A stretch of DNA of 64,000 bases from Acholeplasmataceae bacterium (GTDB lineage: Bacteria > Bacillota_I > Bacilli_A > Acholeplasmatales > Acholeplasmataceae). How positions within the stretch are numbered: position 1 is the first letter of the stretch; each line of letters begins with the position of its first letter. Positions 851 to 58,612 of the stretch are shown piece after piece. The notes under the pieces were generated by a model. The model had not been told where the DNA came from. It saw only the letters and a list, made by a program, of their open reading frames with translations, and searched no databases. The position numbers were made by a program, and so were the translations under genes. Where the stretch lies: NCBI GenBank assembly GCA_011620375.1, contig WOZH01000041.1, positions 3,506 through 67,505 of the forward strand, written 5' to 3'.

Positions 851-2668
851 ATGATTATCGTATATGTAATAGATAACTACGGAGAATTATCTAATGGTAC
901 GACGATAACTGCATTACGTTCAAAGGAACAACTAGAAAAACGTGGTCATACAGTAAGAGTTGTTACTGCTGGATCGGTATCAGGACCAGAGGTATATCAT
1001 TTAAAAAAGCGATACATGCCGATTGTTTCACCTGTGTCTGCAAGACAACAAATGTATTTTGCTAAGCCGGACAAAGTGATTATGACTGAAGCATTCAAAG
1101 ATGCTGATGTTGTTCATTTTTTCATGCCATGGAAAGTGTCGAGATATGGCATTAAATTATGCCGCCGATTAAATATACCTTATACTGCAGCATTTCACAC
1201 ACAACCAGAAAATATCACTTTTGGTATGGGCTTAGGACGATTTGGTGGGCCGATTGCTTGGTTTATCTATCGAAAGTTTTGGATACAATTTTATCGCAAG
1301 GTAACGCATGTTCATTGCCCAAGCGCTTTTATTTCATACGAATTAAAAAACCAGCACTATAAAAATAGATTTCATGTCATCTCAAATGGTATAGCAGAAG
1401 TGTACCATCGCGGGGAGAAACAAGTGCATGAAGGCTATCAAATTTTATCAACGGGTCGCTATGCTTTAGAAAAAAGACAAGATATTATCATTAAGGCGAT
1501 TGCTAAATCAAAACATAAAGATCAAATCCATTTGATTTTAGCTGGACAAGGACCACTTGAACACAAATATCGCACATTGGCTCATAAATTAAATGTCAAC
1601 ACCACATTCGCTTTCTATTCACAAAAAGAACTGATTCACAAAATTCAAGAAAGTGACCTATATATTCATGCAGCCGACGCTGAAATCGAAGGTATTGCTG
1701 CTTTAGAGGCGATTGCGTGTGGACTTGTTCCCATTATTGCAGAATCTAATAAGAGTGCAACAGCACAATTTGCTATTGATGATAGAAACATTTTTAAAGT
1801 CAATCAAGTAAATGAACTCTCAGAAAAAATCGACTATTGGTTGGAACATCCAAAAGAAAGAGAAGAAATGTCCGTTAAGTATGAGCATCACGCGGAAAAC
1901 TATCGATTAAGCCACGCGATCTCTTTATTGGAACAAATGTTCAGACAATCGATAGAAGACCATAAAAGAGCAGTTGTTGCCAAACAAAAAGCGCAAAAAA
2001 AATATCGAAAATTAGTTACTAAAACACGATTAAAAAAAGTGATGTCGTGGATGGTTTATTATTTGATTGCACTGCCTTTGTTAACCATCTATTTACGTTT
2101 ATTTAGAGGTATTAAGATTCAAAATAGAAAGAATATCAAGGCGGTTAAAAAAGGTGGCGTGATGATTTCCAATCATGTACATACGCTCGATTCAGCGATG
2201 AACGCGATTACGGTATTTCCTAAAAAACCTGTCTTTACAAGCATTAAATCAAATTTTGAACTACCTGTAGCAGGCAAATTGGTTAGTATATTAGGCTCAA
2301 CACCTGTCCCAGAAACACCATCTGAAATGAAAATCTTTTTCTATGAATTATCCAAACAGGTCAGAAAAGGTAGAATTGTCCATTTTTTCCCAGAAGGTGA
2401 ACTCATTAAGGGTGACGATAAAATTCGTGCATTAAAGCGTGGTGCATTTATGTTAGCAGAAGAAACCATGTCACCAATACTTCCAGTTGGCATTAGTTTT
2501 CATGAAAAACGATCCGTATTCCCGCTATTTATTAAAGATCGCATTTTGATTAATGTAGGAAGTCCAATTTATCCTGATACACTCAAATTAAAAAAAGATT
2601 CTATTGAGCAGTTATCGAATGAATCACAGGATGCTATGAATCAGTTGATCTCAGTTAAATTCGTTTGA
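851..2668 (+). CDS. GT4 glycosyltransferase (cholesterol alpha-glucosyltransferase-like) fused to a C-terminal PlsC-type acyltransferase
   Basis: aa 1-370 GT-B motifs: SNGT, FHTQPE, HVHCPS, ISNG, GRYALEKRQ, EIEGIAALEAIACG. One TM helix near aa 397-418, then NHVHTLD (H-x4-D), FFPEG, KRGAF. Confidence 0.85.
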   Translation: MIIVYVIDNYGELSNGTTITALRSKEQLEKRGHTVRVVTAGSVSGPEVYHLKKRYMPIVSPVSARQQMYFAKPDKVIMTEAFKDADVVHFFMPWKVSRYGIKLCRRLNIPYTAAFHTQPENITFGMGLGRFGGPIAWFIYRKFWIQFYRKVTHVHCPSAFISYELKNQHYKNRFHVISNGIAEVYHRGEKQVHEGYQILSTGRYALEKRQDIIIKAIAKSKHKDQIHLILAGQGPLEHKYRTLAHKLNVNTTFAFYSQKELIHKIQESDLYIHAADAEIEGIAALEAIACGLVPIIAESNKSATAQFAIDDRNIFKVNQVNELSEKIDYWLEHPKEREEMSVKYEHHAENYRLSHAISLLEQMFRQSIEDHKRAVVAKQKAQKKYRKLVTKTRLKKVMSWMVYYLIALPLLTIYLRLFRGIKIQNRKNIKAVKKGGVMISNHVHTLDSAMNAITVFPKKPVFTSIKSNFELPVAGKLVSILGSTPVPETPSEMKIFFYELSKQVRKGRIVHFFPEGELIKGDDKIRALKRGAFMLAEETMSPILPVGISFHEKRSVFPLFIKDRILINVGSPIYPDTLKLKKDSIEQLSNESQDAMNQLISVKFV

Positions 2669-9907: not shown

Positions 9908-11545
9908 ATGAAAAAAAATAGCGCTCTACGAAAATCATATATCGTTGTCATCACTATCGTTATACTTATCGGTCTATTGGCGCTTATTTTTCGAACTGCT
10001 GTAGGCGTGAAATTAGATGTACCAGCACCAGTGTTAAGCGAAGGATGGTTTTATGAAGGTGTTGAGTTAATCGAATACCCCGCAAAAGTGTCTATCGATA
10101 CGGATGATTCTTTCACGATTTATAAAACGATTGAGGCAACGGACAAAAGATTTGATCTATTGCTGTATACCGATCATCAAGATGTGATTGTGAGATTGGA
10201 TGACACAGTCGTGTATATGTCAACACAAGCAGCATCCAGCGCATCGTTTTATGCCAATCTCCATCATATGGTAACCATAGAAAATAACACAAATTTGAGT
10301 CGGGTTTTATCGATTACTTATCATTCGCCCTATCAGCGAACATCTGGATTAATCGCCCCAATCTATGAAACAGATGAATCAACAGGAGTGCTCTATACTT
10401 ATATTATTTCACAACATATTTGGTATGTTGTGTTTGGCATGCTCTTTATCCTTATTGGCATAGTTACTTTGGCAATCAGCCATGTCGTCGATCAAGCAAC
10501 ATCACGAGGTAGATTTTATTTGGGATTGTTTGCCATCACATTTGGCTTATGGGTGATTGCTAGATCGACGCTATTGCAGTTTGTCACAAACAACGTCTAT
10601 ATCTTGGGCGGGTTAAGTTTAACATTGTTTATGATTTTACCCATACCAATCCTGATGTATTATAAGAGCCATATTACAAAAAGATTTGAACAAGAAACAT
10701 TAGGATTAATTGCTTATTTTGGCTTACAAGCCATTGTTATCACAATGTTGCAAATTGCAGGTGTGCTAGATTTTGTAAAACCCGTGTTGTTCGTGTCAAT
10801 CATGACACTTATCATTATGAGTTTTTTGTTGGCTTTTATTGTTCAAGATGTGCTTAATCATAATGAAATCGCTAAAAAGTTTAGTCGTTATTATGGTATT
10901 TTATTTCTTTATGCGTTCATCACTTTCATCGATGATCAAACATTTAATCATGACAATTTATCCATTTATAGCCTTGCAGTATTGGTATTACTCTCACTCG
11001 TCGTTCTTTTGGACTATATCTTTTTCATAGAGAAAAGATTAAAGCTCAGTTACTTATCCGAGGATTATGCAAGACTAGCATATATGGACCGATTGACAGG
11101 CTCAAAAAACAGGCATGCCTACGAAGAAGATTTCGAACGTTATTTTAGTGATAATCGTCTCAAGAATAATATGAGGTTAGTATTTTTTGATTTCGATGGT
11201 TTAAAACAAATCAACGATCAATATGGGCATGTCGAAGGTGATTTTGTATTAAAAGAAGGTTTTACATCTATTCTTAACGCGTTTGGAAGATATGGTGAAT
11301 GTTATCGCATCGGTGGTGATGAATTTTCATGTATCATTCAATCTCTCGATGATGATCTTTATCAAAACTGCAAAAAACAACTAATTAATGACATAAAGAC
11401 ATTTAGTACATACCATAAATTTGATTTACATATATCTGTGGGAACTGCAACGTATCAAGAAGGTATTGATGAAAAACCAAATGATATGATTATACGAGCC
11501 GATAAGAATATGTATGAAAATAAAAACGGACATAAAAATGTCTAG
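9908..11545 (+). CDS. Membrane-bound diguanylate cyclase (extracellular sensor, multi-TM region, GGDEF)
   Basis: DRLTG..NR, DFDGLKQINDQYGHVEGD, RIGGDEF; about 7 TM helices after an extracellular domain. Confidence 0.88.
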   Translation: MKKNSALRKSYIVVITIVILIGLLALIFRTAVGVKLDVPAPVLSEGWFYEGVELIEYPAKVSIDTDDSFTIYKTIEATDKRFDLLLYTDHQDVIVRLDDTVVYMSTQAASSASFYANLHHMVTIENNTNLSRVLSITYHSPYQRTSGLIAPIYETDESTGVLYTYIISQHIWYVVFGMLFILIGIVTLAISHVVDQATSRGRFYLGLFAITFGLWVIARSTLLQFVTNNVYILGGLSLTLFMILPIPILMYYKSHITKRFEQETLGLIAYFGLQAIVITMLQIAGVLDFVKPVLFVSIMTLIIMSFLLAFIVQDVLNHNEIAKKFSRYYGILFLYAFITFIDDQTFNHDNLSIYSLAVLVLLSLVVLLDYIFFIEKRLKLSYLSEDYARLAYMDRLTGSKNRHAYEEDFERYFSDNRLKNNMRLVFFDFDGLKQINDQYGHVEGDFVLKEGFTSILNAFGRYGECYRIGGDEFSCIIQSLDDDLYQNCKKQLINDIKTFSTYHKFDLHISVGTATYQEGIDEKPNDMIIRADKNMYENKNGHKNV

Positions 11546-20889: not shown

Positions 20890-21027
20890 TATAAATTTGC
20901 ATATCGTTAATAATATGTTATTTTTCAAGCAATAAAACATATCAATATATTTTCTATTTGTGCTTGTGATAGAATAAACACACAACGGACTATATGTCAT
21001 ATTTATATGAAAGATATGGTGATTTAT

Positions 21028-21960
21028 ATGATAGAAACAAAAACAAATGCGTATCACACCACTTTGACGTCAAGAAATTTACTGATGCTCACAATTGCTT
21101 TGGGTGTGTTATTGTTTGCCGGAGCAATTATTTTTGGGTTCTATGTGCTTTTAGTAGCAGCCGTCGCTGTCGCAGCTGCGGGACTTGTTGAACTTTTATT
21201 CTCTAGCGTTAGAAAAATAGATTTTGACTATTTTTGGTTTATCACGCCGCTGATTTTCACTTTATTGTTGCCACCATCTATCCCATTATGGATTGCGGGT
21301 GTCGGATCCTTTTTTGGATATTTTTTTGGAAAAAGTATCTTTGGTGGAGCGGGTAAGACAGTATTCAACCCAGCACTTGTTGGGATTTTGTTTGTCACCA
21401 TCTCGTTTCCTCAATTTATTTTGACAGCTTGGCTAGATCCTGTTACAGGTGTGATCGGTACGCAAACACCGTTATCATTGTTGAATAGCGGAAATGTATT
21501 TACATACACGATGTCTGATTTATTCTTTGGCTATACACCGGGTACTATCGGTGAAACATTTAGAATTGGCATTCTTGTGTTAGGCTTGTTAATGATGGCA
21601 TTGCGCGTCACTGACTGGCGCATTCCAGTCGGTATTTTGGGTACTGTATTCATCGTTACATTATTAGGTTATTACATACTACCGAGTCAATTTGCTGATC
21701 CTTACTATTCTCTATTTGTTGGTTCTGTGCTATTCGTTGCATTTTTTGTTGCTACAGAGCCAGTATCAGCACCAAAAAAACCATGGGGTAGATTGTATTA
21801 TGGCATTGGCATCGGATTATTGATTGTATTGATTAGAAATTTTGGAACATTTCCAGAAGGCACAGTATTCGCTGTGATTTTAATGAATGCCGTTGGCGCA
21901 CTGTTTGATGCGGGTAAAAAAGTAGAAAAGGTAGGTGAACTTAGTGAACAGGAATCTTAA
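21028..21960 (+). CDS. RnfD/NqrB-family membrane subunit
   Basis: K.IFGG.GKTVFNPALVG, TQTPL, GTIGET, LFVAFFVATEPVSAP, FPEGTVFAVILMN. About 310 aa (RnfD-sized). Confidence 0.88.
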   Translation: MIETKTNAYHTTLTSRNLLMLTIALGVLLFAGAIIFGFYVLLVAAVAVAAAGLVELLFSSVRKIDFDYFWFITPLIFTLLLPPSIPLWIAGVGSFFGYFFGKSIFGGAGKTVFNPALVGILFVTISFPQFILTAWLDPVTGVIGTQTPLSLLNSGNVFTYTMSDLFFGYTPGTIGETFRIGILVLGLLMMALRVTDWRIPVGILGTVFIVTLLGYYILPSQFADPYYSLFVGSVLFVAFFVATEPVSAPKKPWGRLYYGIGIGLLIVLIRNFGTFPEGTVFAVILMNAVGALFDAGKKVEKVGELSEQES

Positions 21961-22576
21961 GGCCATCGTCTTTGTTTTAATACTGGGTGTCATTACTTCA
22001 GTTGTCTTATTAGGGGCTAAATCATTGACAGAGGATAGAATTGCATTAAATAGCGATGTGAAATTGAAGTCGGCAGTACTCGATGGGTTTGATATTTCAT
22101 ATAACGCTGCAAATATTCATGATATATTTAGTCAAGAAGTGATGATATTTTATTATGAAGGATTGGCTAATGATGATAGTGACGATATTTCATTTTATTA
22201 TCATTCAAGCACTGGCGCTGTTGCTTTTGAGTTTTCAAGTGGTGGTGTTTGGGACACAATTTCAGGTGTTTTGACGCTTGAATCGGACCTTGAAACTATT
22301 CAAAGAATAGCGGTTCTATATCAGGCTGAAACACCGGGTTTGGGTGGTGTAGTTGCTACTGCCCAATATCTGAATACGTTTATTGGTATTAAGATGACAC
22401 CGCAATTAGAAATTAACAAAGATAATGCTGCAAATGCAGAAAATGAAGTTGATTCAATCACAGGGGCTACTAGAACATCAAAAGCATTTGAAAGTGTATT
22501 AAATACAACGTATGTCTATGCATTATCGATTTGGGAAGATGAAAACATAAATGTTCAAGGGTGGTTAACATCATGA
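21944..22576 (+). CDS. NqrC/RnfG-family FMN-binding subunit
   Basis: N-terminal TM, GGVWDTISG, ETPGLG, intact flavinylation motif VDSITGAT. Confidence 0.9.
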   Translation: MNRNLKAIVFVLILGVITSVVLLGAKSLTEDRIALNSDVKLKSAVLDGFDISYNAANIHDIFSQEVMIFYYEGLANDDSDDISFYYHSSTGAVAFEFSSGGVWDTISGVLTLESDLETIQRIAVLYQAETPGLGGVVATAQYLNTFIGIKMTPQLEINKDNAANAENEVDSITGATRTSKAFESVLNTTYVYALSIWEDENINVQGWLTS

Positions 22577-23202
22577 AAAAATGGATAAGATTGAAATATA
22601 CTAAGCCATATAACATTTTAAGAGATGGTATTTCCATTAATAATCCTATTGCAATTGCTGTTTTAGGTATTTGTTCTGCATTGGCTGTTACAAATAAAGT
22701 TGAAAATGCGATTGCTATGGGATTAGGTGTGACATTTGTTGTCATGGCATCTTCACTTGTTATATCGCTCTTAAGAAACTTTATTCCTTCAAAAGTGAGA
22801 ATGATTACTTACATGGTTGTTATCTCATCGTTTGTTATTGTCGTTCAATTTTTTCTACAAGCATATTTTCCAACAATCGCTGACGCATTAGGTGCGTATG
22901 TTGGATTGATTATCACAAACTGTATTGTTATGGGTAGAGCTGAGGCGTTTGCTGTTAAAAATCCTGTTAAATATTCAATTGTTGACGGGTTTGCTGCTGG
23001 TATGGGTTACACGATTGTACTGGTTTTAACAGCATCCATTCGTGAAATATTGGCATTTGGTACTTTCTTAAATATGCAGGTTATGCCAGATACATGGGTT
23101 AATTGGGTTGTCATGGCAATGGCACCAGGTGGATTCTTTATTCTTGGGTTATTTATTTGGGGTATACGCCAATGGACCAAGAATTTTGAAGAAGCCATAT
23201 AA
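22573..23202 (+). CDS. nqrD: NqrD-like membrane subunit
   Basis: NNPI...LGICSALAVT and GLIITNCIVMGRAE, with both metal-ligating Cys present. Confidence 0.8.
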   Translation: MKKWIRLKYTKPYNILRDGISINNPIAIAVLGICSALAVTNKVENAIAMGLGVTFVVMASSLVISLLRNFIPSKVRMITYMVVISSFVIVVQFFLQAYFPTIADALGAYVGLIITNCIVMGRAEAFAVKNPVKYSIVDGFAAGMGYTIVLVLTASIREILAFGTFLNMQVMPDTWVNWVVMAMAPGGFFILGLFIWGIRQWTKNFEEAI

Positions 23203-23216
23203 GGAGGAACTGATAT

Positions 23217-23789
23217 ATGAACGCATTTGAACTCTTTATTTCATCGATATTAAACAATAATATTGCGCTGGTCTTTATTCTTGGTATGTGTCCGTTGATA
23301 GCGATATCAACGAATGTTAAAAACGCTAGAGGTATGGGAATCGCTGTTGTGTTCGTCGTGACGATTACAGCAATGATCAACTGGCCTATTTATCAATTAT
23401 TGGTAGCGACAAATACAACGTATGTTAGTTATATCGTCTTTATTATAACGATTGCAGCAACCGTCCAATTTTTAGAGATTTTCTTAGAACGATTTATACC
23501 AAAACTATATAATGCATTTGGTATTTTCTTACCGCTGATTACCGTAAACTGTGTGGTTTTGGCCGTTTCGTTATTCTTTGTGAACAGGGACTATAATTTT
23601 GTTCAAACCACAACATTTGCTTTTGGTTCATCGGTTGGTTGGTTATTGGCGATTGTCTTAGTTGCCGCACTTCGAGAAAAGATGCGTCAAATTTCGAATC
23701 CACCACATGGATTACGCGGTAAAGCGATTGTGTTCTTCATGCTAGGTATCTTAGCGCTTGCCTTCATGGGCTTCACTGGATTGGTATAA
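23217..23789 (+). CDS. nqrE: NqrE-like membrane subunit
   Basis: LGMCP, LYNAFGIFLPLITVNC, GWLLAI, PHGLRG. Confidence 0.8.
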   Translation: MNAFELFISSILNNNIALVFILGMCPLIAISTNVKNARGMGIAVVFVVTITAMINWPIYQLLVATNTTYVSYIVFIITIAATVQFLEIFLERFIPKLYNAFGIFLPLITVNCVVLAVSLFFVNRDYNFVQTTTFAFGSSVGWLLAIVLVAALREKMRQISNPPHGLRGKAIVFFMLGILALAFMGFTGLV

Positions 23790-23798
23790 GGGGGGATT

Positions 23799-24884
23799 AT
23801 GATGGAATGGATTATATTACCTAGCATACTTGTGGGACTCATGCTCATCATTACAACAATCTTAATTGTGATTGAAAAACTGATGGGCGGAGATAAAGAA
23901 AAAGTTATTCACATCAATGATGACACAACTATCCCAGTTCATGGTAATGACACGTTGTTGAACGCACTGGCGAATGAAAAGATTTTTGTACCATCCGCTT
24001 GTGGGGGTAAAGCGACATGTGGCTTTTGCAAAGTAAGACTGTTGGATGATGATTCAACTTTAAAACCAACGGAAGAAGCATTTGTATCACCAGAAGAAGC
24101 AGCTCAAGGTGTACATCTATCTTGCCAAATAAAAACATATGACCAGATGAAGATAGTTTTACCTAAAGGGTTATTAACAGCTAAAGAATATCAAACGAAA
24201 ATCACACATGTAGAAGACTTAACATATGACATTAAACTGGTGAGATTCCATTTAATTGATCCTGAAACGATTGATTTTAAACCAGGTCAATATGTTCAGA
24301 TTAAAGTGCCTGGAATTGAGATTATACGTGCTTATTCGATTGCAAGTGATCCAAAGGATAAAAACAATATTGAATTATTGATTCGCTATGTGCCAAATGG
24401 ACAAGCGACAACATTTGTTCACAAAGCGCTTGAAGAGGGCGATAAGATAACCATTACTGGACCTTATGGTGATTTCTTCTTAAGGGAAGATTCTAAGCGT
24501 GATATGATTTGTATCGCTGGTGGATCGGGTAAGGCCCCAATTAGATCAATTCTTGCAAAATTGAAAGACGAAGGCATGCCAAGGAAGGTCAAGTATTTCT
24601 TTGGTGCAAGATCCAAACGTGACTTGTATTATACTGAAGAGTTTGAGCAACTTGCAAAAACATATCCAAACTTTGAATATATTCCGGCATTATCAGAACC
24701 AAAACCCGAAGATAATTGGACGGGTGAAACTGGATTGATTACCGATGTTGTCGATCGTCATACGAAAGATTTAACAGAAGCTGAAGGCTATCTGTGTGGA
24801 TCTCCTGGCATGATTGATGCATGTATTCGTATACTATCTAAGCACGCGATGAAAGACGAAAACATGCTATTTGATAAATTTTAA
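23799..24884 (+). CDS. nqrF: NqrF-like 2Fe-2S/FAD/NAD(P) oxidoreductase with N-terminal anchor
   Basis: SACGGKATCGFCKV...LSCQ, RAYSIAS, GPYGDF, GGSGKAP, GARSKRD, YLCGSPGMI, FDKF. Confidence 0.8.
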   Translation: MMEWIILPSILVGLMLIITTILIVIEKLMGGDKEKVIHINDDTTIPVHGNDTLLNALANEKIFVPSACGGKATCGFCKVRLLDDDSTLKPTEEAFVSPEEAAQGVHLSCQIKTYDQMKIVLPKGLLTAKEYQTKITHVEDLTYDIKLVRFHLIDPETIDFKPGQYVQIKVPGIEIIRAYSIASDPKDKNNIELLIRYVPNGQATTFVHKALEEGDKITITGPYGDFFLREDSKRDMICIAGGSGKAPIRSILAKLKDEGMPRKVKYFFGARSKRDLYYTEEFEQLAKTYPNFEYIPALSEPKPEDNWTGETGLITDVVDRHTKDLTEAEGYLCGSPGMIDACIRILSKHAMKDENMLFDKF

Positions 24885-54743: not shown

Positions 54744-55645
54744 AAATAGACGTTAGAGAAGATATAAAAAAAGCATTGGCATATGGACAAGCGGTTGTCG
54801 CACTAGAATCAACAATCATTTCTCACGGTATGCCTTATCCTACCAATGTTGAGATGGCGAAGCATGTCGAAGACATCATTAAAAATGAGGGGGCTGTTCC
54901 CGCGACAATCGCGATTATTAACGGTGTAATCAAGGTTGGATTGACACCGGATGAATTGACCGATCTCGCGAAAGAAAAAAATGTTTTAAAGGTCAGCAAG
55001 CGAGATTTTGGATATGTTGTGTCAAAGAAGATGACTGGAGCAACCACTGTATCGGCCACGATGTTGATTGCCAATATGGTTGGTATCAAAGTGTTTGCAA
55101 CCGGTGGCATTGGTGGTGTGCATCGTGGCGCACAAGAAACGTTTGATATCTCTAGAGATTTAGAGGAACTTTCAAATGTGGATGTATGCGTGGTCTGTGC
55201 TGGTGCGAAGTCAATCCTTGATTTAGGATTAACGATGGAGTATTTAGAAACCAAAGGTGTTGAAGTCATTGGCTATCAAACCGATGAACTACCTGCTTTC
55301 TATACTAGAAAAAGTGGTCATCAAGTGACGTATCGTTTGGATTCAGCTGAAGAAATTGCTGACTTGTTGAAAACAAAATGGGGCTTGGGTATCAGCGGTG
55401 GGGTTGTCGTTGCTAATCCGATTCCAGAAGCGTATAGTCAAGATCCTCATGAAATCAATCAAGCGATTGATATCGCGATTGAATCAGCCAAAAAACAAGG
55501 TATTACAGGGAAAAAGACGACACCATTTTTATTGGATTTTATTAAGACGCACACCAAAGGTGAGTCGTTAAAAGCCAACCTTGAACTTGTTTATAACAAT
55601 GCGAGGTTAGCCGCCGAAATCGCAATTAAGTATGGTGAAAAATAA
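54740..55645 (+). CDS. psuG: Pseudouridine-5'-phosphate glycosidase
   Basis: [51 protein letters not shown]. Confidence 0.95.
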
Positions 55646-55777
55646 TTCAGAACACCATGATGTGTAGTTTATATATCACAATTAATGGTTTTTATTGTTA
55701 GACAATGAAAACGAAAAATATGATAAAAGACCGATAAAGCCAAGAAACAAAGCGATTTATCAATGATGATGAGATAC

Positions 55778-55794
55778 TTACCACATAGTGGTAA
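55778..55794. promoter_or_regulatory. Palindrome upstream of the SPT-like gene (candidate operator)
   Basis: Perfect TTACCAC-ATA-GTGGTAA with no U tract. Confidence 0.4.
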
Positions 55795-55870
55795 AAAGAA
55801 GTGACGTCATTTTCACTAAAATCGTATATAATAGAATAAAATGCATATTTTTGAGTTAGAAAGGAACAAC

Positions 55871-57058
55871 ATGGACTTATTTAAAAAGTGTTATACTTAT
55901 GATTCAGCAAAAAAAGCTAAAGCAGCAGGACACTACCCTTATTTTCACACTTTGACGTCTAAACAGGATGTTGTGGTCAACATGGAAGGTCATCAGGAAA
56001 TCATGATTGGTTCTAATAACTATTTAGGATTAACATCCCATCCAGATGTCATTAAAGCATCTATTGAGGCGACACAAATGTATGGCACCGGTGTGTCGGG
56101 TTCGCGATTTTTAAATGGGACACTCGATTTGCATCAAACACTTGAAAAAGAGTTAGCTGAATTTTTACATAAAGAAGATTGTACGATTTTCTCAACAGGA
56201 TTCCAAACTAATCTAGGCATTATATCTGCGATTGCTGGACGTAATGATCTCATTTTCTCTGATAAGGAGAATCATGCAAGCATCTATGATGGGACAAGAC
56301 TATCTTATGCAGAAGTGATTAGATACAATCATAATGATATGGATGATTTGGAAAGCAAATTGTCAACAGCAGATCCTAATAAGGGAAAACTCATCGTGAC
56401 TGATGGTGTCTTTTCAATGTCAGGTGATATTGCTAAAATCCCTGAAATCAACAGATTGGCAAAAAAATATGAAGCACGCATCATGGTTGATGATGCTCAC
56501 GCTTTTGGAGTTATTGGTGAATATGGCAGAGGTACAGCCGAATATTTCGGTTTGGAAAAAGAAGTGGATATTATTATGGGCACATTTTCGAAATCACTTG
56601 CCAGCATAGGCGGTTATGTGGCTGCTGACCATGATGTCGTTGATTATATTAGACATAATTCTAGACCATATATCTTTTCAGCAGCTATTCCACCAGCAAA
56701 CACAGCTGCTGCGTTAGCAGCGCTTCGTATTTTGAAGAGAGAACCAAATCGCGCCCATGAATTACTGGCGATTGCTGATTATATGCGTCAGGGATTAAAG
56801 AAAAAAGGCATTGAAATTAGAGAATCAAAGGTGCCGATTATTCCGATTTATACGTATACGCCGATACGCACGATGGTCGCGTGTAACCTATTATTTGAAC
56901 GTGGTGTTTATGTCAATCCCGTCTTGCCGCCAGCAACTCCCATTGGGGAATGCTTGATACGAACATCCTATATGGCGACGCATACGAAAGAACTCATGGA
57001 TGAAGCGATTGAGAAAATCGCTGCAGTACTAGAGGAAACAAAGGATTTGATGGATTAA
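55871..57058 (+). CDS. spt: Serine palmitoyltransferase-like alpha-oxoamine synthase
   Basis: YPYF, GSNNYLGL, GSRFLNGTLDLH, HASI, DDAH, GTFSKSL (PLP Lys), RHNSRPYIFSA, VNPVLPPATP. Confidence 0.75.
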   Translation: MDLFKKCYTYDSAKKAKAAGHYPYFHTLTSKQDVVVNMEGHQEIMIGSNNYLGLTSHPDVIKASIEATQMYGTGVSGSRFLNGTLDLHQTLEKELAEFLHKEDCTIFSTGFQTNLGIISAIAGRNDLIFSDKENHASIYDGTRLSYAEVIRYNHNDMDDLESKLSTADPNKGKLIVTDGVFSMSGDIAKIPEINRLAKKYEARIMVDDAHAFGVIGEYGRGTAEYFGLEKEVDIIMGTFSKSLASIGGYVAADHDVVDYIRHNSRPYIFSAAIPPANTAAALAALRILKREPNRAHELLAIADYMRQGLKKKGIEIRESKVPIIPIYTYTPIRTMVACNLLFERGVYVNPVLPPATPIGECLIRTSYMATHTKELMDEAIEKIAAVLEETKDLMD

Positions 57059-57900
57059 TGACTAAAAAAGTAATTGTTATCACGGGTGCTTCATCGGGCA
57101 TTGGTTTAGCAACAGCCGAATGGCTGGCTGCAAAAGGCCATATCGTATATGGTATCGCTAGATCGAAAGTGGTTGCTAAAGGTGTCAATGCGATTCAAGC
57201 GAACGTGACCGATTATGAACAATTAAAATTGGCTTATAAGGAAATCTTTGATATTGAAGGAAAGATTGATGTTTTAATCAACAATGCCGGTATGGGTATT
57301 GCCGGTTCAGTCGAAGCGACATCACTCGAAGATGCTCATTACTTATTTAATGTCAATTTGATGGGCGTGTTTTATTCTGTGAAAGCCGCATTGCCTTATA
57401 TGCACAAAACAGCCCACCCCAAAATTATCAATTTGGGTTCGGTAGCAGGTAGATTCTCGATTCCCTTTCAAGCGTTTTATAGCAGCTCCAAGGCTGCCGT
57501 AGAATCGTTATCGGATGCATTGGATATTGAATTGCGTCCATTTGGTTTTCAAGTGTGTACCGTGTTACCCGGAGATATTAAAACGGGTTTTACACAAAAT
57601 AGACGAAAAAACAAAGATGAAAGTTCAAGATATAAAAGACGTGTTATTCGTTCGCTAAAGGTCATGGAAAATGATGAGCAAAATGGTATTGATGTTGCTT
57701 TTGCTGGGAAAGTGATTGGTAAACTTGTTTTAAGAAGACGCATGCCGTTACATAAAGTGATTGGCTTCAAATATCAAGTCTTTTTATGGTTAAATAAATG
57801 GCTACCATCACGCTTTGTGCACTGGATAATTGATAAGTTGTATGGATTTTCAAATCTTAAAGCACAACGTGGCGATGATAGTTATGCAATAAAACAATAA
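57058..57900 (+). CDS. Classical SDR, candidate 3-ketodihydrosphingosine reductase
   Basis: TGASSGIG, basic residue after beta2 (IARS, NADPH-type), NNAG, YSSSK, PGDIKTGF; TAATG coupling to spt. Confidence 0.8.
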   Translation: MTKKVIVITGASSGIGLATAEWLAAKGHIVYGIARSKVVAKGVNAIQANVTDYEQLKLAYKEIFDIEGKIDVLINNAGMGIAGSVEATSLEDAHYLFNVNLMGVFYSVKAALPYMHKTAHPKIINLGSVAGRFSIPFQAFYSSSKAAVESLSDALDIELRPFGFQVCTVLPGDIKTGFTQNRRKNKDESSRYKRRVIRSLKVMENDEQNGIDVAFAGKVIGKLVLRRRMPLHKVIGFKYQVFLWLNKWLPSRFVHWIIDKLYGFSNLKAQRGDDSYAIKQ

Positions 57901-57978
57901 AAAATATAAATCAGTAAAGATCATGAATGAATGTTGCGCTTCATAAAGACTAATGGAAGAGCATTGTGAAAATAAGAG

Positions 57979-58010
57979 AAATACCAGAGCGTTTGGCTAT
58001 GGTATTTTTT
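57979..58010 (+). terminator. Terminator after spt-SDR
   Basis: AAATACCAGAGC-GTTTG-GCTATGGTATTT followed by a T run. Confidence 0.6.
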
Positions 58011-58043
58011 CTTTGCTTTTTACGTAAAACAGACACAAAAAGA

Positions 58044-58072
58044 TTGACATCATAGTGACTTTATTATATAAT
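58044..58072 (+). promoter_or_regulatory. str operon promoter
   Basis: Consensus TTGACA-N17-TATAAT. Confidence 0.85.
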
Positions 58073-58195
58073 AAAAACGCTGTGTAAAATATACACAATC
58101 TAAATCTTTAAAGTGGCTTAACAAAGCCAATAAAATTTTTTAAAAAGAAAAAAGAAACACATGGATATGTGTGAAGGAAAGGAGAACCGCTAGAT

Positions 58196-58612
58196 ATGCC
58201 TACCATTCAACAGTTAGTCACAAAAGGAAGATCCACGAAAAATTACAAGTCAAAGTCACCAGCTTTAGGCTACGGATATAATTCCAAAGCAAAAGAAATA
58301 TCCGTCTACAATTCCCCACAAAAACGTGGTGTGTGCACACGTGTAACGACCATGACACCTAAGAAACCTAATTCAGCATTGCGTAAATATGCTCGTGTTC
58401 GTTTATCAAATCAAACAGAAGTTACAGCATACATCCCAGGTATTGGACATTCACTGCAAGAACACAGTGTCGTCTTGATCCGTGGTGGACGTGTAAAGGA
58501 CTTACCTGGTGTACGTTATCATATCGTACGTGGTACACTTGATGCTTCAGGTGTTCAAAACCGCGAACAAGCACGTTCAAAGTACGGTACTAAGAGACCG
58601 AAGAAAAAATAA
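58196..58612 (+). CDS. rpsL: 30S ribosomal protein S12
   Basis: [27 protein letters not shown]. Confidence 0.99.

Follow-up and report, generated by a model that had tools for sequence, protein, structure and literature searches.

The locus considered here raises the question of whether a wall-less bacterium bounded by a single membrane encodes the entry into sphingolipid biosynthesis, and with which type of enzymes. Discussion of sphingolipids in bacteria usually centres on Bacteroidota, some Proteobacteria and a few Actinobacteria. In the Acholeplasmataceae they are known from chemistry: according to work by Plackett, Smith and Mayberry (Plackett 1970, Mayberry 1973), Acholeplasma (Haploplasma) axanthum reportedly contains ceramide phosphoglycerol with amide-linked 3-hydroxy fatty acids, and to our knowledge the ceramide-type lipids described chemically around 1970 were never tied to genes. 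The DNA analysed in this study, a 64-kb stretch from the same family (hereafter, the window), approaches the matter from the opposite side, through genes alone. A literature search returned no paper linking SPT/KDSR genes to Mollicutes or Bacillota, nor one describing the genes of the operon, although such an absence is no proof.

The first-pass annotation had read two neighbouring genes of the window as the first two steps of sphingoid base synthesis (SPT and a 3-ketodihydrosphingosine reductase, KDSR), and every computational test run here supports this assignment. Based on the collective evidence, the two genes quite probably constitute a self-contained transcription unit for the synthesis of a sphingoid long-chain base, with enzymes of the Bacteroides type.

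Organization of the locus

The two-gene unit (55871-57058 and 57058-57900, both on the forward strand) is sited between rpoBC/psuKG and the rpsL operon, with a PfkB-type kinase and a pseudouridine-5'-phosphate glycosidase-like gene on its 5' side, and rpsL, rpsG, fusA and tuf on its 3' side. The upstream gene encodes an SPT-like PLP α-oxoamine synthase of 395 residues and the downstream gene a KdsR-like classical SDR of 280 residues, the putative 3-ketodihydrosphingosine reductase. The translational coupling proposed at the outset is evident from a TAATG overlap, in which the SPT stop codon (TAA, 57056-57058) and the SDR start codon (ATG, 57058-57060) have the single base at 57058 in common. 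An alternative in-frame ATG for the SPT gene exists at 55841, but the homologs begin with MDLFKK, as does the protein read from 55871, and a ribosome-binding site (AAAGGAA, 55860-55866, forward strand) lies 4 nt 5' of the latter start.

Further upstream, consensus scan and sequence together point to an AT-rich promoter-like region (55802-55837, forward strand) that comprises TTTTCA and TAGAAT at a spacing of 16 (55810-55837) as well as TATAAT (55827-55832). With 10 promoter-like sites found in the region compared to 11.9 in shuffled sequence, the count does not exceed expectation, and the operon promoter is therefore plausible at most. On the 3' side, a terminator-like hairpin (ATACCAGAGC...GGCTATGGTAT, approximately 57980-58005) with a T run behind it that ends at 58011 (57980-58011 in all, forward strand) closes the unit ahead of the rpsL promoter at 58044-58072. 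The hairpin, which had been noticed before and which a simple consensus scan misses, has a z-score of -2.3 for a 126-nt stretch. No Rfam match to a regulatory RNA was obtained in 55300-58400.

The SPT-like enzyme

Among the NCBIfam families, the upstream protein scores best with NF047600 (SerpalmtaseCFB; 537.6 bits), followed by Kbl (406), BioF (392) and CqsA (222.7). The NF047600 equivalog cut-off of 640 bits is missed, the relatives of the protein scoring 506-545 bits, and so are the cut-offs of the Kbl (460), BioF (426) and CqsA (428) models. The best solved relative is the SPT of Sphingobacterium multivorum (SmSPT, PDB 3A2B/8GUH; BT_0870 type) with 416.6 bits and 49% identity, the two being alike as soluble proteins of about 395 residues that align ungapped over 382 residues. 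Other solved families all stay at or under 288 bits, with about 240-290 bits for Kbl, BioF and the cysteate acyltransferases (Kbl, 258-284). The fold question may be regarded as already settled by the matches to solved SPT structures and, judged by sequence, the protein is nearer to characterised Bacteroidota SPT than to Kbl, BioF, ALAS, CqsA or cysteate acyltransferase. A search of 1.84 billion cluster representatives gave nearest representatives of which almost none bore a name, and the tree was therefore anchored by PDB sequences together with E. coli Kbl and BioF. In this tree, the SPT-like proteins of Bacillota form a separate clade that is monophyletic in 100 of 100 NJ bootstraps. In accordance with the original SPT assignment, this clade groups with SmSPT, apart from Kbl, BioF and alpha-proteobacterial SPT, in 71-82 of 100 NJ quartets, hence with moderate support.

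The five motifs on which the assignment had been built were all located in the protein: YPYF at position 22, GSRFLNGTLDLH at 77, GTFSKSL at 237, RHNSRPYIFSA at 261 and VNPVLPPA at 348. The PLP site appears complete, with the Schiff-base lysine (K241 in GTFSKS), a histidine for ring stacking and carboxylate anchoring, an aspartate for N1 and a histidine for O3' (H135, D207 and H210). These residues align with K244, H138, D210 and H213 of SmSPT and are invariant across homologs. From the active-site residues described for SmSPT (PMC10196870), the window protein keeps N52, G80, S81, F83, L84, N85, F114, H138, S185, D210, A212, H213, T241, S243, K244, F272, S273 and A274 (SmSPT numbering), which include N52, G80, S81 and S243 on the serine side; the sole change among the residues checked is a conservative one, M271 to Ile, at a position where the main chain is used. 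The substrate loop GSRFLNGT, of which G77-S-R-F-L-N82 is the first part, is identical in both enzymes. As far as alignment can tell, the window α-oxoamine synthase is an enzyme that keeps the SmSPT active site and its serine-contacting environment.

The KdsR-like reductase

The downstream protein shows the features of a classical SDR: TGASSGIG (9-16) of the TGxxxGxG type, GHIVYG (27), NNAGMGI (75, with NNAG at 75-78), YSSSK (141), PGD (171) and a Ser-Tyr-Lys catalytic set of S128, Y141 and K145. The basic residue after β-2 (R35) is of the NADPH type, and we infer a preference for this cofactor. The likeness to BT_0972, put forward in the first-pass annotation, held up in direct comparison with the reference sequence (supplement of PMC9278070), the two being 42% identical over 267 residues in a full-length match (E 2e-69). 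BT_0972 is the verified 3-ketosphinganine reductase of Bacteroides thetaiotaomicron, converting 3-KDS into sphinganine (PMC9278070). It shares 39 of the 42 most conserved positions of the SDR clade, and the likeness of the two proteins continues past the Rossmann core into a conserved C-terminal region, the window SDR extending about 12 residues further. NF049977 (KdsR) is the best NCBIfam family at 255.9 bits, 54 bits above the runner-up (201.9), and it also comes out on top for five further KdsR-like SDRs at related loci. The KdsR equivalog cut-off of 400 is missed, compared to 494 bits for BT_0972 as control. Because both operon proteins fall below their NCBI equivalog cut-offs, they are understood as outliers of the characterised families. 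Gene organization sets them apart as well: the reductase gene of the window is operonic with and translationally coupled to that of SPT, whereas BT_0870 and BT_0972 are not neighbours, since their locus tags are about 100 apart.

Conservation and gene linkage

The nearest relatives of both proteins are from Acholeplasmataceae genomes and MAGs. Of 80 related loci, 59 have an SDR gene directly beside that for SPT, among them every locus of Acholeplasmataceae or Izemoplasmatales that has enough flanking sequence. The pair occupies the same chromosomal locus throughout the Acholeplasmataceae and is present in dozens of Mollicute species; in Peloplasma aerotolerans M4Ah, the locus is identical to that of the window. 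Some Clostridia have the SDR gene upstream and others downstream of the SPT gene, thus both gene orders exist, and many clostridial loci have an SPT-like gene with no SDR nearby. Adjacency also occurs in a bacterium further removed, with an SPT of 52% identity. Purifying selection acts strongly on both genes. Going by these homologs, the SPT-KdsR pathway is not peculiar to Mollicutes and reaches the Izemoplasmatales and Clostridia.

Alternative products

Glycine C-acetyltransferase (Kbl) paired with an SDR-type threonine dehydrogenase, or BioF of biotin synthesis, would share the α-oxoamine synthase fold and the PLP chemistry with the window enzyme; many homologs are annotated publicly as '8-amino-7-oxononanoate synthase', and the two models still give 392-406 bits. 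Identity alone cannot fix the substrate, because Kbl (37-40%; 37% for that of E. coli) and alpha-proteobacterial SPT (39-40%) are equally similar to the protein; E. coli BioF is 30% identical. Both scores nevertheless trail the SPT model by more than 130 bits and stay under their own cut-offs. The substrate loop, as the first-pass annotation had argued, distinguishes SPT (GSRFLNGT in SmSPT, GSRVLNGT or GSRMLNGT in Sphingomonas) from Kbl (SVRFICGT in the Coxiella enzyme). Furthermore, the SDR matches KdsR and not threonine dehydrogenase, and the flanking genes are, as stated earlier, neither bio nor tdh genes, whereas E. coli kbl adjoins tdh and bioF lies within the bio operon. A Kbl- or BioF-type function is thus highly improbable. 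Functional diversity within the α-oxoamine synthase family, and the fusion of related sequences to many other domains, could also suggest an α-hydroxyketone signal (CqsA/LqsA type) or a secondary-metabolite precursor as the product. The CqsA score, at about half its cut-off, speaks against it, and membrane-lipid housekeeping better explains why dozens of small genomes conserve the genes at a core chromosomal position under strong purifying selection, so that we regard a product of this kind as very unlikely.

[quoted passage not shown] This diagnostic lysine is Ala271 in the window protein, alanine in 81 of 81 Bacillota homologs and lysine in none of the 132 nearest representatives. Similarity to the sulfonolipid enzymes is also much lower, at 244 bits for CapB and 238 for SulA (PDB sequences) against 416 for SPT. 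Known ketocapnine reductases are 21-27% identical to BT_0972 (PMC11211663), compared to 42% for the window SDR, and no cysteate synthase adjoins the operon; capnine synthesis is highly improbable here. A further alternative is a related but non-canonical long-chain amino alcohol, be it a 1-deoxy base from alanine or glycine, a base with unusual acyl chains, or a free base, signal or antimicrobial outside ceramides. SmSPT does take Ala and Gly, with low efficiency (PMC10196870). Both proteins being under the equivalog cut-offs would fit such a product, as would the outcome that none of the Mollicute loci showed an N-acyltransferase close to the operon. However, the protein keeps every part of the serine-contacting environment of SmSPT, and the A. 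axanthum sphingolipids are reportedly ceramide-based. The 3-hydroxy fatty acids of Peloplasma aerotolerans M4Ah (3-OH C18:0, 4.1%; 3-OH C16:0, 1.8%; PMC11122141) fit an N-acylated lipid, and we consider the non-canonical product unlikely.

Proposed pathway and later steps

The favoured reading, canonical sphingoid base synthesis by SPT and KdsR, would proceed in two steps. By homology to SmSPT, PLP would be held as a Schiff base on K241 and exchanged for L-serine; a long-chain acyl thioester (acyl-CoA or acyl-ACP) would then bind, and decarboxylative Claisen condensation would afford 3-ketodihydrosphingosine. By homology to BT_0972, the co-translated SDR would use NADPH and the S128/Y141/K145 set in reducing the 3-keto group, to release sphinganine. 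A second step of the BT_0972 type implies that reduction would be the earlier event, an order found in Bacteroides and eukaryotes but not in the Spt-bCerS-CerR system of Caulobacter, which likewise begins with SPT but places N-acylation before reduction and relies on an epimerase-type reductase and a dedicated ACP.

The later steps would be encoded outside the operon, with N-acylation perhaps involving 3-hydroxy fatty acids and the head group perhaps being phosphoglycerol, as in A. axanthum; the final product would be placed in the single membrane of the wall-less cell, where, as the first-pass annotation suggested, it might perhaps stand in for sterols. That the operon lacks the N-acylating enzyme agrees with the first-pass annotation. 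Neither the 64-kb window nor the 80 related loci (about 1.1 Mb) yielded a ceramide synthase (bCerS-like GNAT), CerR, dedicated ACP or head-group enzyme, and clustering of the neighbours in the 80 loci gave no conserved acyltransferase near the operon in Mollicutes. A GNAT gene does adjoin SPT-SDR in two Christensenellaceae loci, and in other bacteria the GNAT is fused to SPT. This type of GNAT occurs neither in the window nor at any other of the loci, and elsewhere it lies beside DegV, without SPT. The partners initially suggested from within the window (a GT-acyltransferase fusion, GtrA and an RND pump) gained no support. The GT4-PlsC fusion (851-2668), 53 kb away, matches DAG-glycolipid synthases and PlsC-type O-acyltransferases, thus looks glycolipid-type, and was rejected as an operon partner, no linkage having been shown.

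As regards its history, the operon would be a core trait of free-living Acholeplasmataceae, inherited vertically at the rpoBC/str locus. With slightly less than even confidence, we extend this to the view that SPT and KdsR belong to the ancestral core of the free-living Acholeplasmataceae and Izemoplasmatales and are found also in Clostridia such as Christensenellales; sphingolipids would then be normal constituents of the membrane for some of the Bacillota. On the ancestral-trait reading, the 372-residue GNAT family beside SPT-KdsR in Christensenellaceae, and fused to SPT elsewhere, may be the ceramide synthase.

Biological implications

If the sphingoid base assignment is correct, the SPT-KdsR operon would provide the genetic basis for the Acholeplasma sphingolipids reported some 50 years ago and would establish sphingolipid synthesis in wall-less cells with a single membrane. 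The pathway would be extended to many Gram-positive-derived lineages, with the Izemoplasmatales and the gut-associated Christensenellales among the new candidate producers, and the N-acylating enzyme of the Acholeplasmataceae lineage may be of a new type. The question is amenable to experiment in the cultured strains Peloplasma aerotolerans DSM 112561 and Mariniplasma anaerobium. As for occurrence in nature, DNA of the window is present in metagenomes from oil fields, groundwater and landfill, all matches being DNA runs.

Results

The locus comprises two forward-strand genes, one for a serine palmitoyltransferase (SPT)-like PLP enzyme of 395 amino acids beginning MDLFKK (gene 1, 55871–57058) and one for a KdsR-like SDR of 280 amino acids (gene 2, 57058–57900). 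The stop codon of the former and the start codon of the latter overlap by one base (TAATG), in line with the translational coupling proposed in the first-pass annotation, whose listed motifs were all found in place. Gene 1 probably does not begin at an alternative in-frame ATG (55841), because the homologs start with MDLFKK and a ribosome-binding site (AAAGGAA, forward strand) lies 4 nt before 55871. Upstream of the operon are rpoB, rpoC and genes for a PfkB-type kinase and a pseudouridine-5'-phosphate glycosidase-like protein, and a 225-bp AT-rich spacer ahead of gene 1 contains promoter-like hexamers that are not enriched relative to shuffled sequence. Downstream, the anticipated terminator was located as a forward-strand hairpin with T run (about 57980–58011); since it precedes a perfect consensus sigma-70 promoter (TTGACA-17-TATAAT, 58044–58072, forward strand) ahead of rpsL, rpsG, fusA and tuf, the pair looks like a two-gene transcription unit of its own. 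Composition is unremarkable, and no Rfam family matches were found in the operon region.

Gene 1 matches only the broad Aminotran_1_2 family in Pfam. Its top-ranked NCBIfam model is the Bacteroidota serine palmitoyltransferase (NF047600, 537.6 bits, cut-off 640), ahead of beta-proteobacterial SPT (413 bits, cut-off 500), Kbl (406, 460), BioF (392, 426), ALAS (276, 339) and CqsA (223, 428), none of these matches attaining the curated cut-off of its model. Against all solved structures, gene 1 scores highest with the Sphingobacterium multivorum SPT (SmSPT; 3A2B/8GUH; 416.6 bits over 382 residues ungapped), compared to 272–288 bits for Sphingomonas SPTs, 256–284 for Kbl, 244 for cysteate-C-fatty acyltransferase, 238 for Alistipes SulA and 215 or less for BioF. 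In a trimmed alignment, gene 1 is 49% identical to SmSPT, 40% to Coxiella Kbl, 39–40% to alpha-proteobacterial SPTs, and 37% and 30% to the Kbl and BioF of E. coli, respectively. Based on the residue roles described for SmSPT (PMC10196870; paper numbering is query position + 3), gene 1 retains the PLP and substrate residues N52, G80, S81, F83, L84, N85, F114, H138, S185, D210, A212, H213, T241, S243, K244, F272, S273 and A274. The sole active-site change is M271 to Ile, at a position where SmSPT uses the main-chain carbonyl alone (PMC10196870).

Gene 2 encodes a classical SDR (Pfam adh_short) whose top NCBIfam family is KdsR (NF049977; 255.9 bits, full-length, below the cut-off of 400), followed by a second family at 201.9 bits. 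Five more KdsR-like SDRs, from Acholeplasmataceae-related, Izemoplasma and Clostridia loci and from a more distant bacterium, likewise rank KdsR first (236–269 bits); the control, BT_0972 of Bacteroides thetaiotaomicron, scores 494 bits. The 3-ketosphinganine reductase activity of BT_0972 has been demonstrated (PMC9278070), and its complete sequence was taken from the supplementary alignment of that paper. The resemblance to BT_0972 noted in the first-pass annotation is borne out by BLASTP (267 residues aligned, 42% identical and 59% positive; E 2e-69), an identity that is high for SDRs and spans the C-terminal region beyond the Rossmann core. Conservation reaches at least 95% at 42 positions in a set of 56 full-length homologs drawn from related loci. 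BT_0972 carries the identical residue at 39 of these; the common non-generic residues include P136, Q138, PGD 171–173, T176, F178, T179, R182, Y192, E204, E207, G210, G236, P250 and Y262. At its C-terminus (57860–57900) the window SDR is some 12–15 residues longer than most homologs (280 compared to 264–273 amino acids; 269 in BT_0972).

Relatives of gene 1 form more than 120 protein clusters (76–91% identity) in Acholeplasmataceae, Mariniplasma, Peloplasma and 'Tenericutes' genomes, where their annotation does not go beyond generic aminotransferase or BioF, and SDR relatives show the same pattern at 54–84% identity. A survey of one genome per species gave 80 loci from Acholeplasmataceae, Izemoplasmatales (including Izemoplasma sp. 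B36) and Clostridia MAGs, with the SPT + KdsR-like pair present in 59. Wherever the flank is long enough, Acholeplasmataceae and Izemoplasmatales loci all have the KdsR-like gene directly 3' of SPT; in Clostridia it follows SPT, precedes it on the same strand, or is missing from the flank. The nearest outside representative of gene 1, P0256 (52% identity), lies on a contig of 53% GC that carries PTS genes; it too is followed by an overlapping KdsR-like SDR, 41% identical to BT_0972. There is thus good evidence for a functional pair, because the adjacency outlasts gene-order change and more than 50% sequence divergence. Acholeplasmataceae keep the context rpoB-rpoC-pfkB-psuG-SPT-SDR-rpsL-rpsG-fusA-tuf, which marks the operon as a stable core feature of this family rather than a recent island. 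In both genes, non-synonymous differences are far below synonymous ones, which are saturated.

Several lineages show further neighbours. A gene for a 218-aa formate/nitrite-transporter-family membrane protein directly follows the SDR in 24 Acholeplasmataceae loci (L001:2004-2660 and 23 others); the window lacks it and has the terminator and rpsL promoter in its place. In 8–10 Izemoplasmatales loci (L034–L052), a TetR-like regulator and a 737–777-aa MacB-like ABC ATPase-permease fusion lie just 5' of the pair; they may represent a lipid regulator and exporter, or a coincidental association. In the distant 53% GC bacterium, a lipoprotein with PEPEPE linker precedes the pair and a 151-aa GNAT follows it (L090:8007-8462). 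The Clostridia SPT-like genes (L042–L080; Christensenellales, Acutalibacteraceae and others) are 64–69% identical to gene 1, and several of these MAGs come from gut or rumen samples. To our knowledge, these lineages are not known sphingolipid producers.

Discussion

The operon probably carries out sphingoid-base synthesis. From homology and conserved catalytic residues we infer that the SPT would condense L-serine with a long-chain acyl thioester to 3-ketodihydrosphingosine, which the KdsR-like SDR would then reduce with NADPH to sphinganine. This reduce-first order is that of Bacteroides and eukaryotes, unlike the acylate-first route of Caulobacter.

Function as Kbl or BioF is a weaker reading, given that both models score below their own cut-offs and below the SPT model. 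Phylogenetic comparison agrees: the Bacillota SPT clade is monophyletic (100/100 NJ bootstraps), and 71–82/100 NJ quartet tests place it with SmSPT to the exclusion of Kbl, BioF and alpha-proteobacterial SPT, which is moderate support. Sulfonolipid synthesis, also weaker, would involve a SulA-type enzyme, distinguished from SPT by one active-site difference, Lys281 replacing alanine (PMC9304779); the window protein and all 80 related proteins have Ala at the corresponding position, and Lys never occurs there among the 132 nearest representatives in a library of 1.84 billion proteins. Less weight than on sphingoid-base synthesis is likewise placed on a non-canonical base, on a free base as end product, and on synthesis of a signal or natural product.

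As stated in the first-pass annotation, the operon has no N-acylation enzyme. No ceramide synthase candidate was found in the 64-kb window or near the operon in Mollicute loci. In two Christensenellaceae loci, SPT-SDR is followed by a 372-aa GNAT gene (L069:11989-13104, L071:12057-13172), homologous to the C-terminal domain of SPT-GNAT fusion proteins of 777–780 aa from other bacteria (P0259, E 2e-34; P0268). Because a homologous domain is fused to the SPT C-terminus elsewhere, this family is a candidate ceramide-synthase-like N-acyltransferase; in one further species of Clostridia, what adjoins this GNAT is a DegV fatty-acid-binding protein gene, not SPT. Other SPT-like fusions (P0261, P0266, P0272, P0267, P0269) comprise N-terminal FemAB_like/Acetyltransf_6-SPT, one also carrying a PilZ domain, SPT-DUF1571 and SPT-STAS. 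The downstream partners once envisaged in the window found no support. The GT4 glycosyltransferase-PlsC-type acyltransferase fusion (851–2668, forward strand, 605 aa, HX4D motif) weakly matches MGlcDAG and LTA-anchor glycolipid synthases, resembles DAG-glycolipid synthases and O-acyltransferases, and may make acylated glycolipids; for the GtrA and RND genes, no evidence of linkage was obtained.

Both enzymes belong to known families and imply no new mechanism, yet the assignment goes beyond routine annotation because public records name the genes generic aminotransferase, BioF or SDR. Full-text search, of incomplete coverage, found no paper tying SPT or KDSR genes to Mollicutes or other Bacillota. 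With this operon, a lipid-chemistry observation of long standing gains a genetic basis that can be tested, and the range of bacteria likely to produce sphingolipids grows. In the 1970s, Acholeplasma axanthum was reportedly found to contain a sphingolipid, ceramide phosphoglycerol with amide-linked D-3-hydroxyhexadecanoate and an O-acyl group. This lipid resembles the phosphoglycerol dihydroceramides of Porphyromonas. The window DNA occurs in oil-field, groundwater and landfill metagenomes, all of them DNA and not RNA runs, and its source organism is uncultured; the cultured relative Peloplasma aerotolerans M4Ah has the identical pfkB-psuG-SPT-SDR-rpsL layout, with SPT 79% identical to gene 1. 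Its fatty acids include 3-OH C18:0 (4.1%) and 3-OH C16:0 (1.8%) (PMC11122141), unexpected in a cell without lipopolysaccharide.

Elsewhere in the window, a five-gene cluster (21007–24884, forward strand) resembles by eye NqrB-F or Rnf-type Na+-translocating NADH:quinone oxidoreductase subunits, unusual for a Mollicute. A multi-pass membrane protein (9908–11545, forward strand) with C-terminal GGDEF (RIGGDEF) diguanylate cyclase domain suggests c-di-GMP signalling in a wall-less bacterium.
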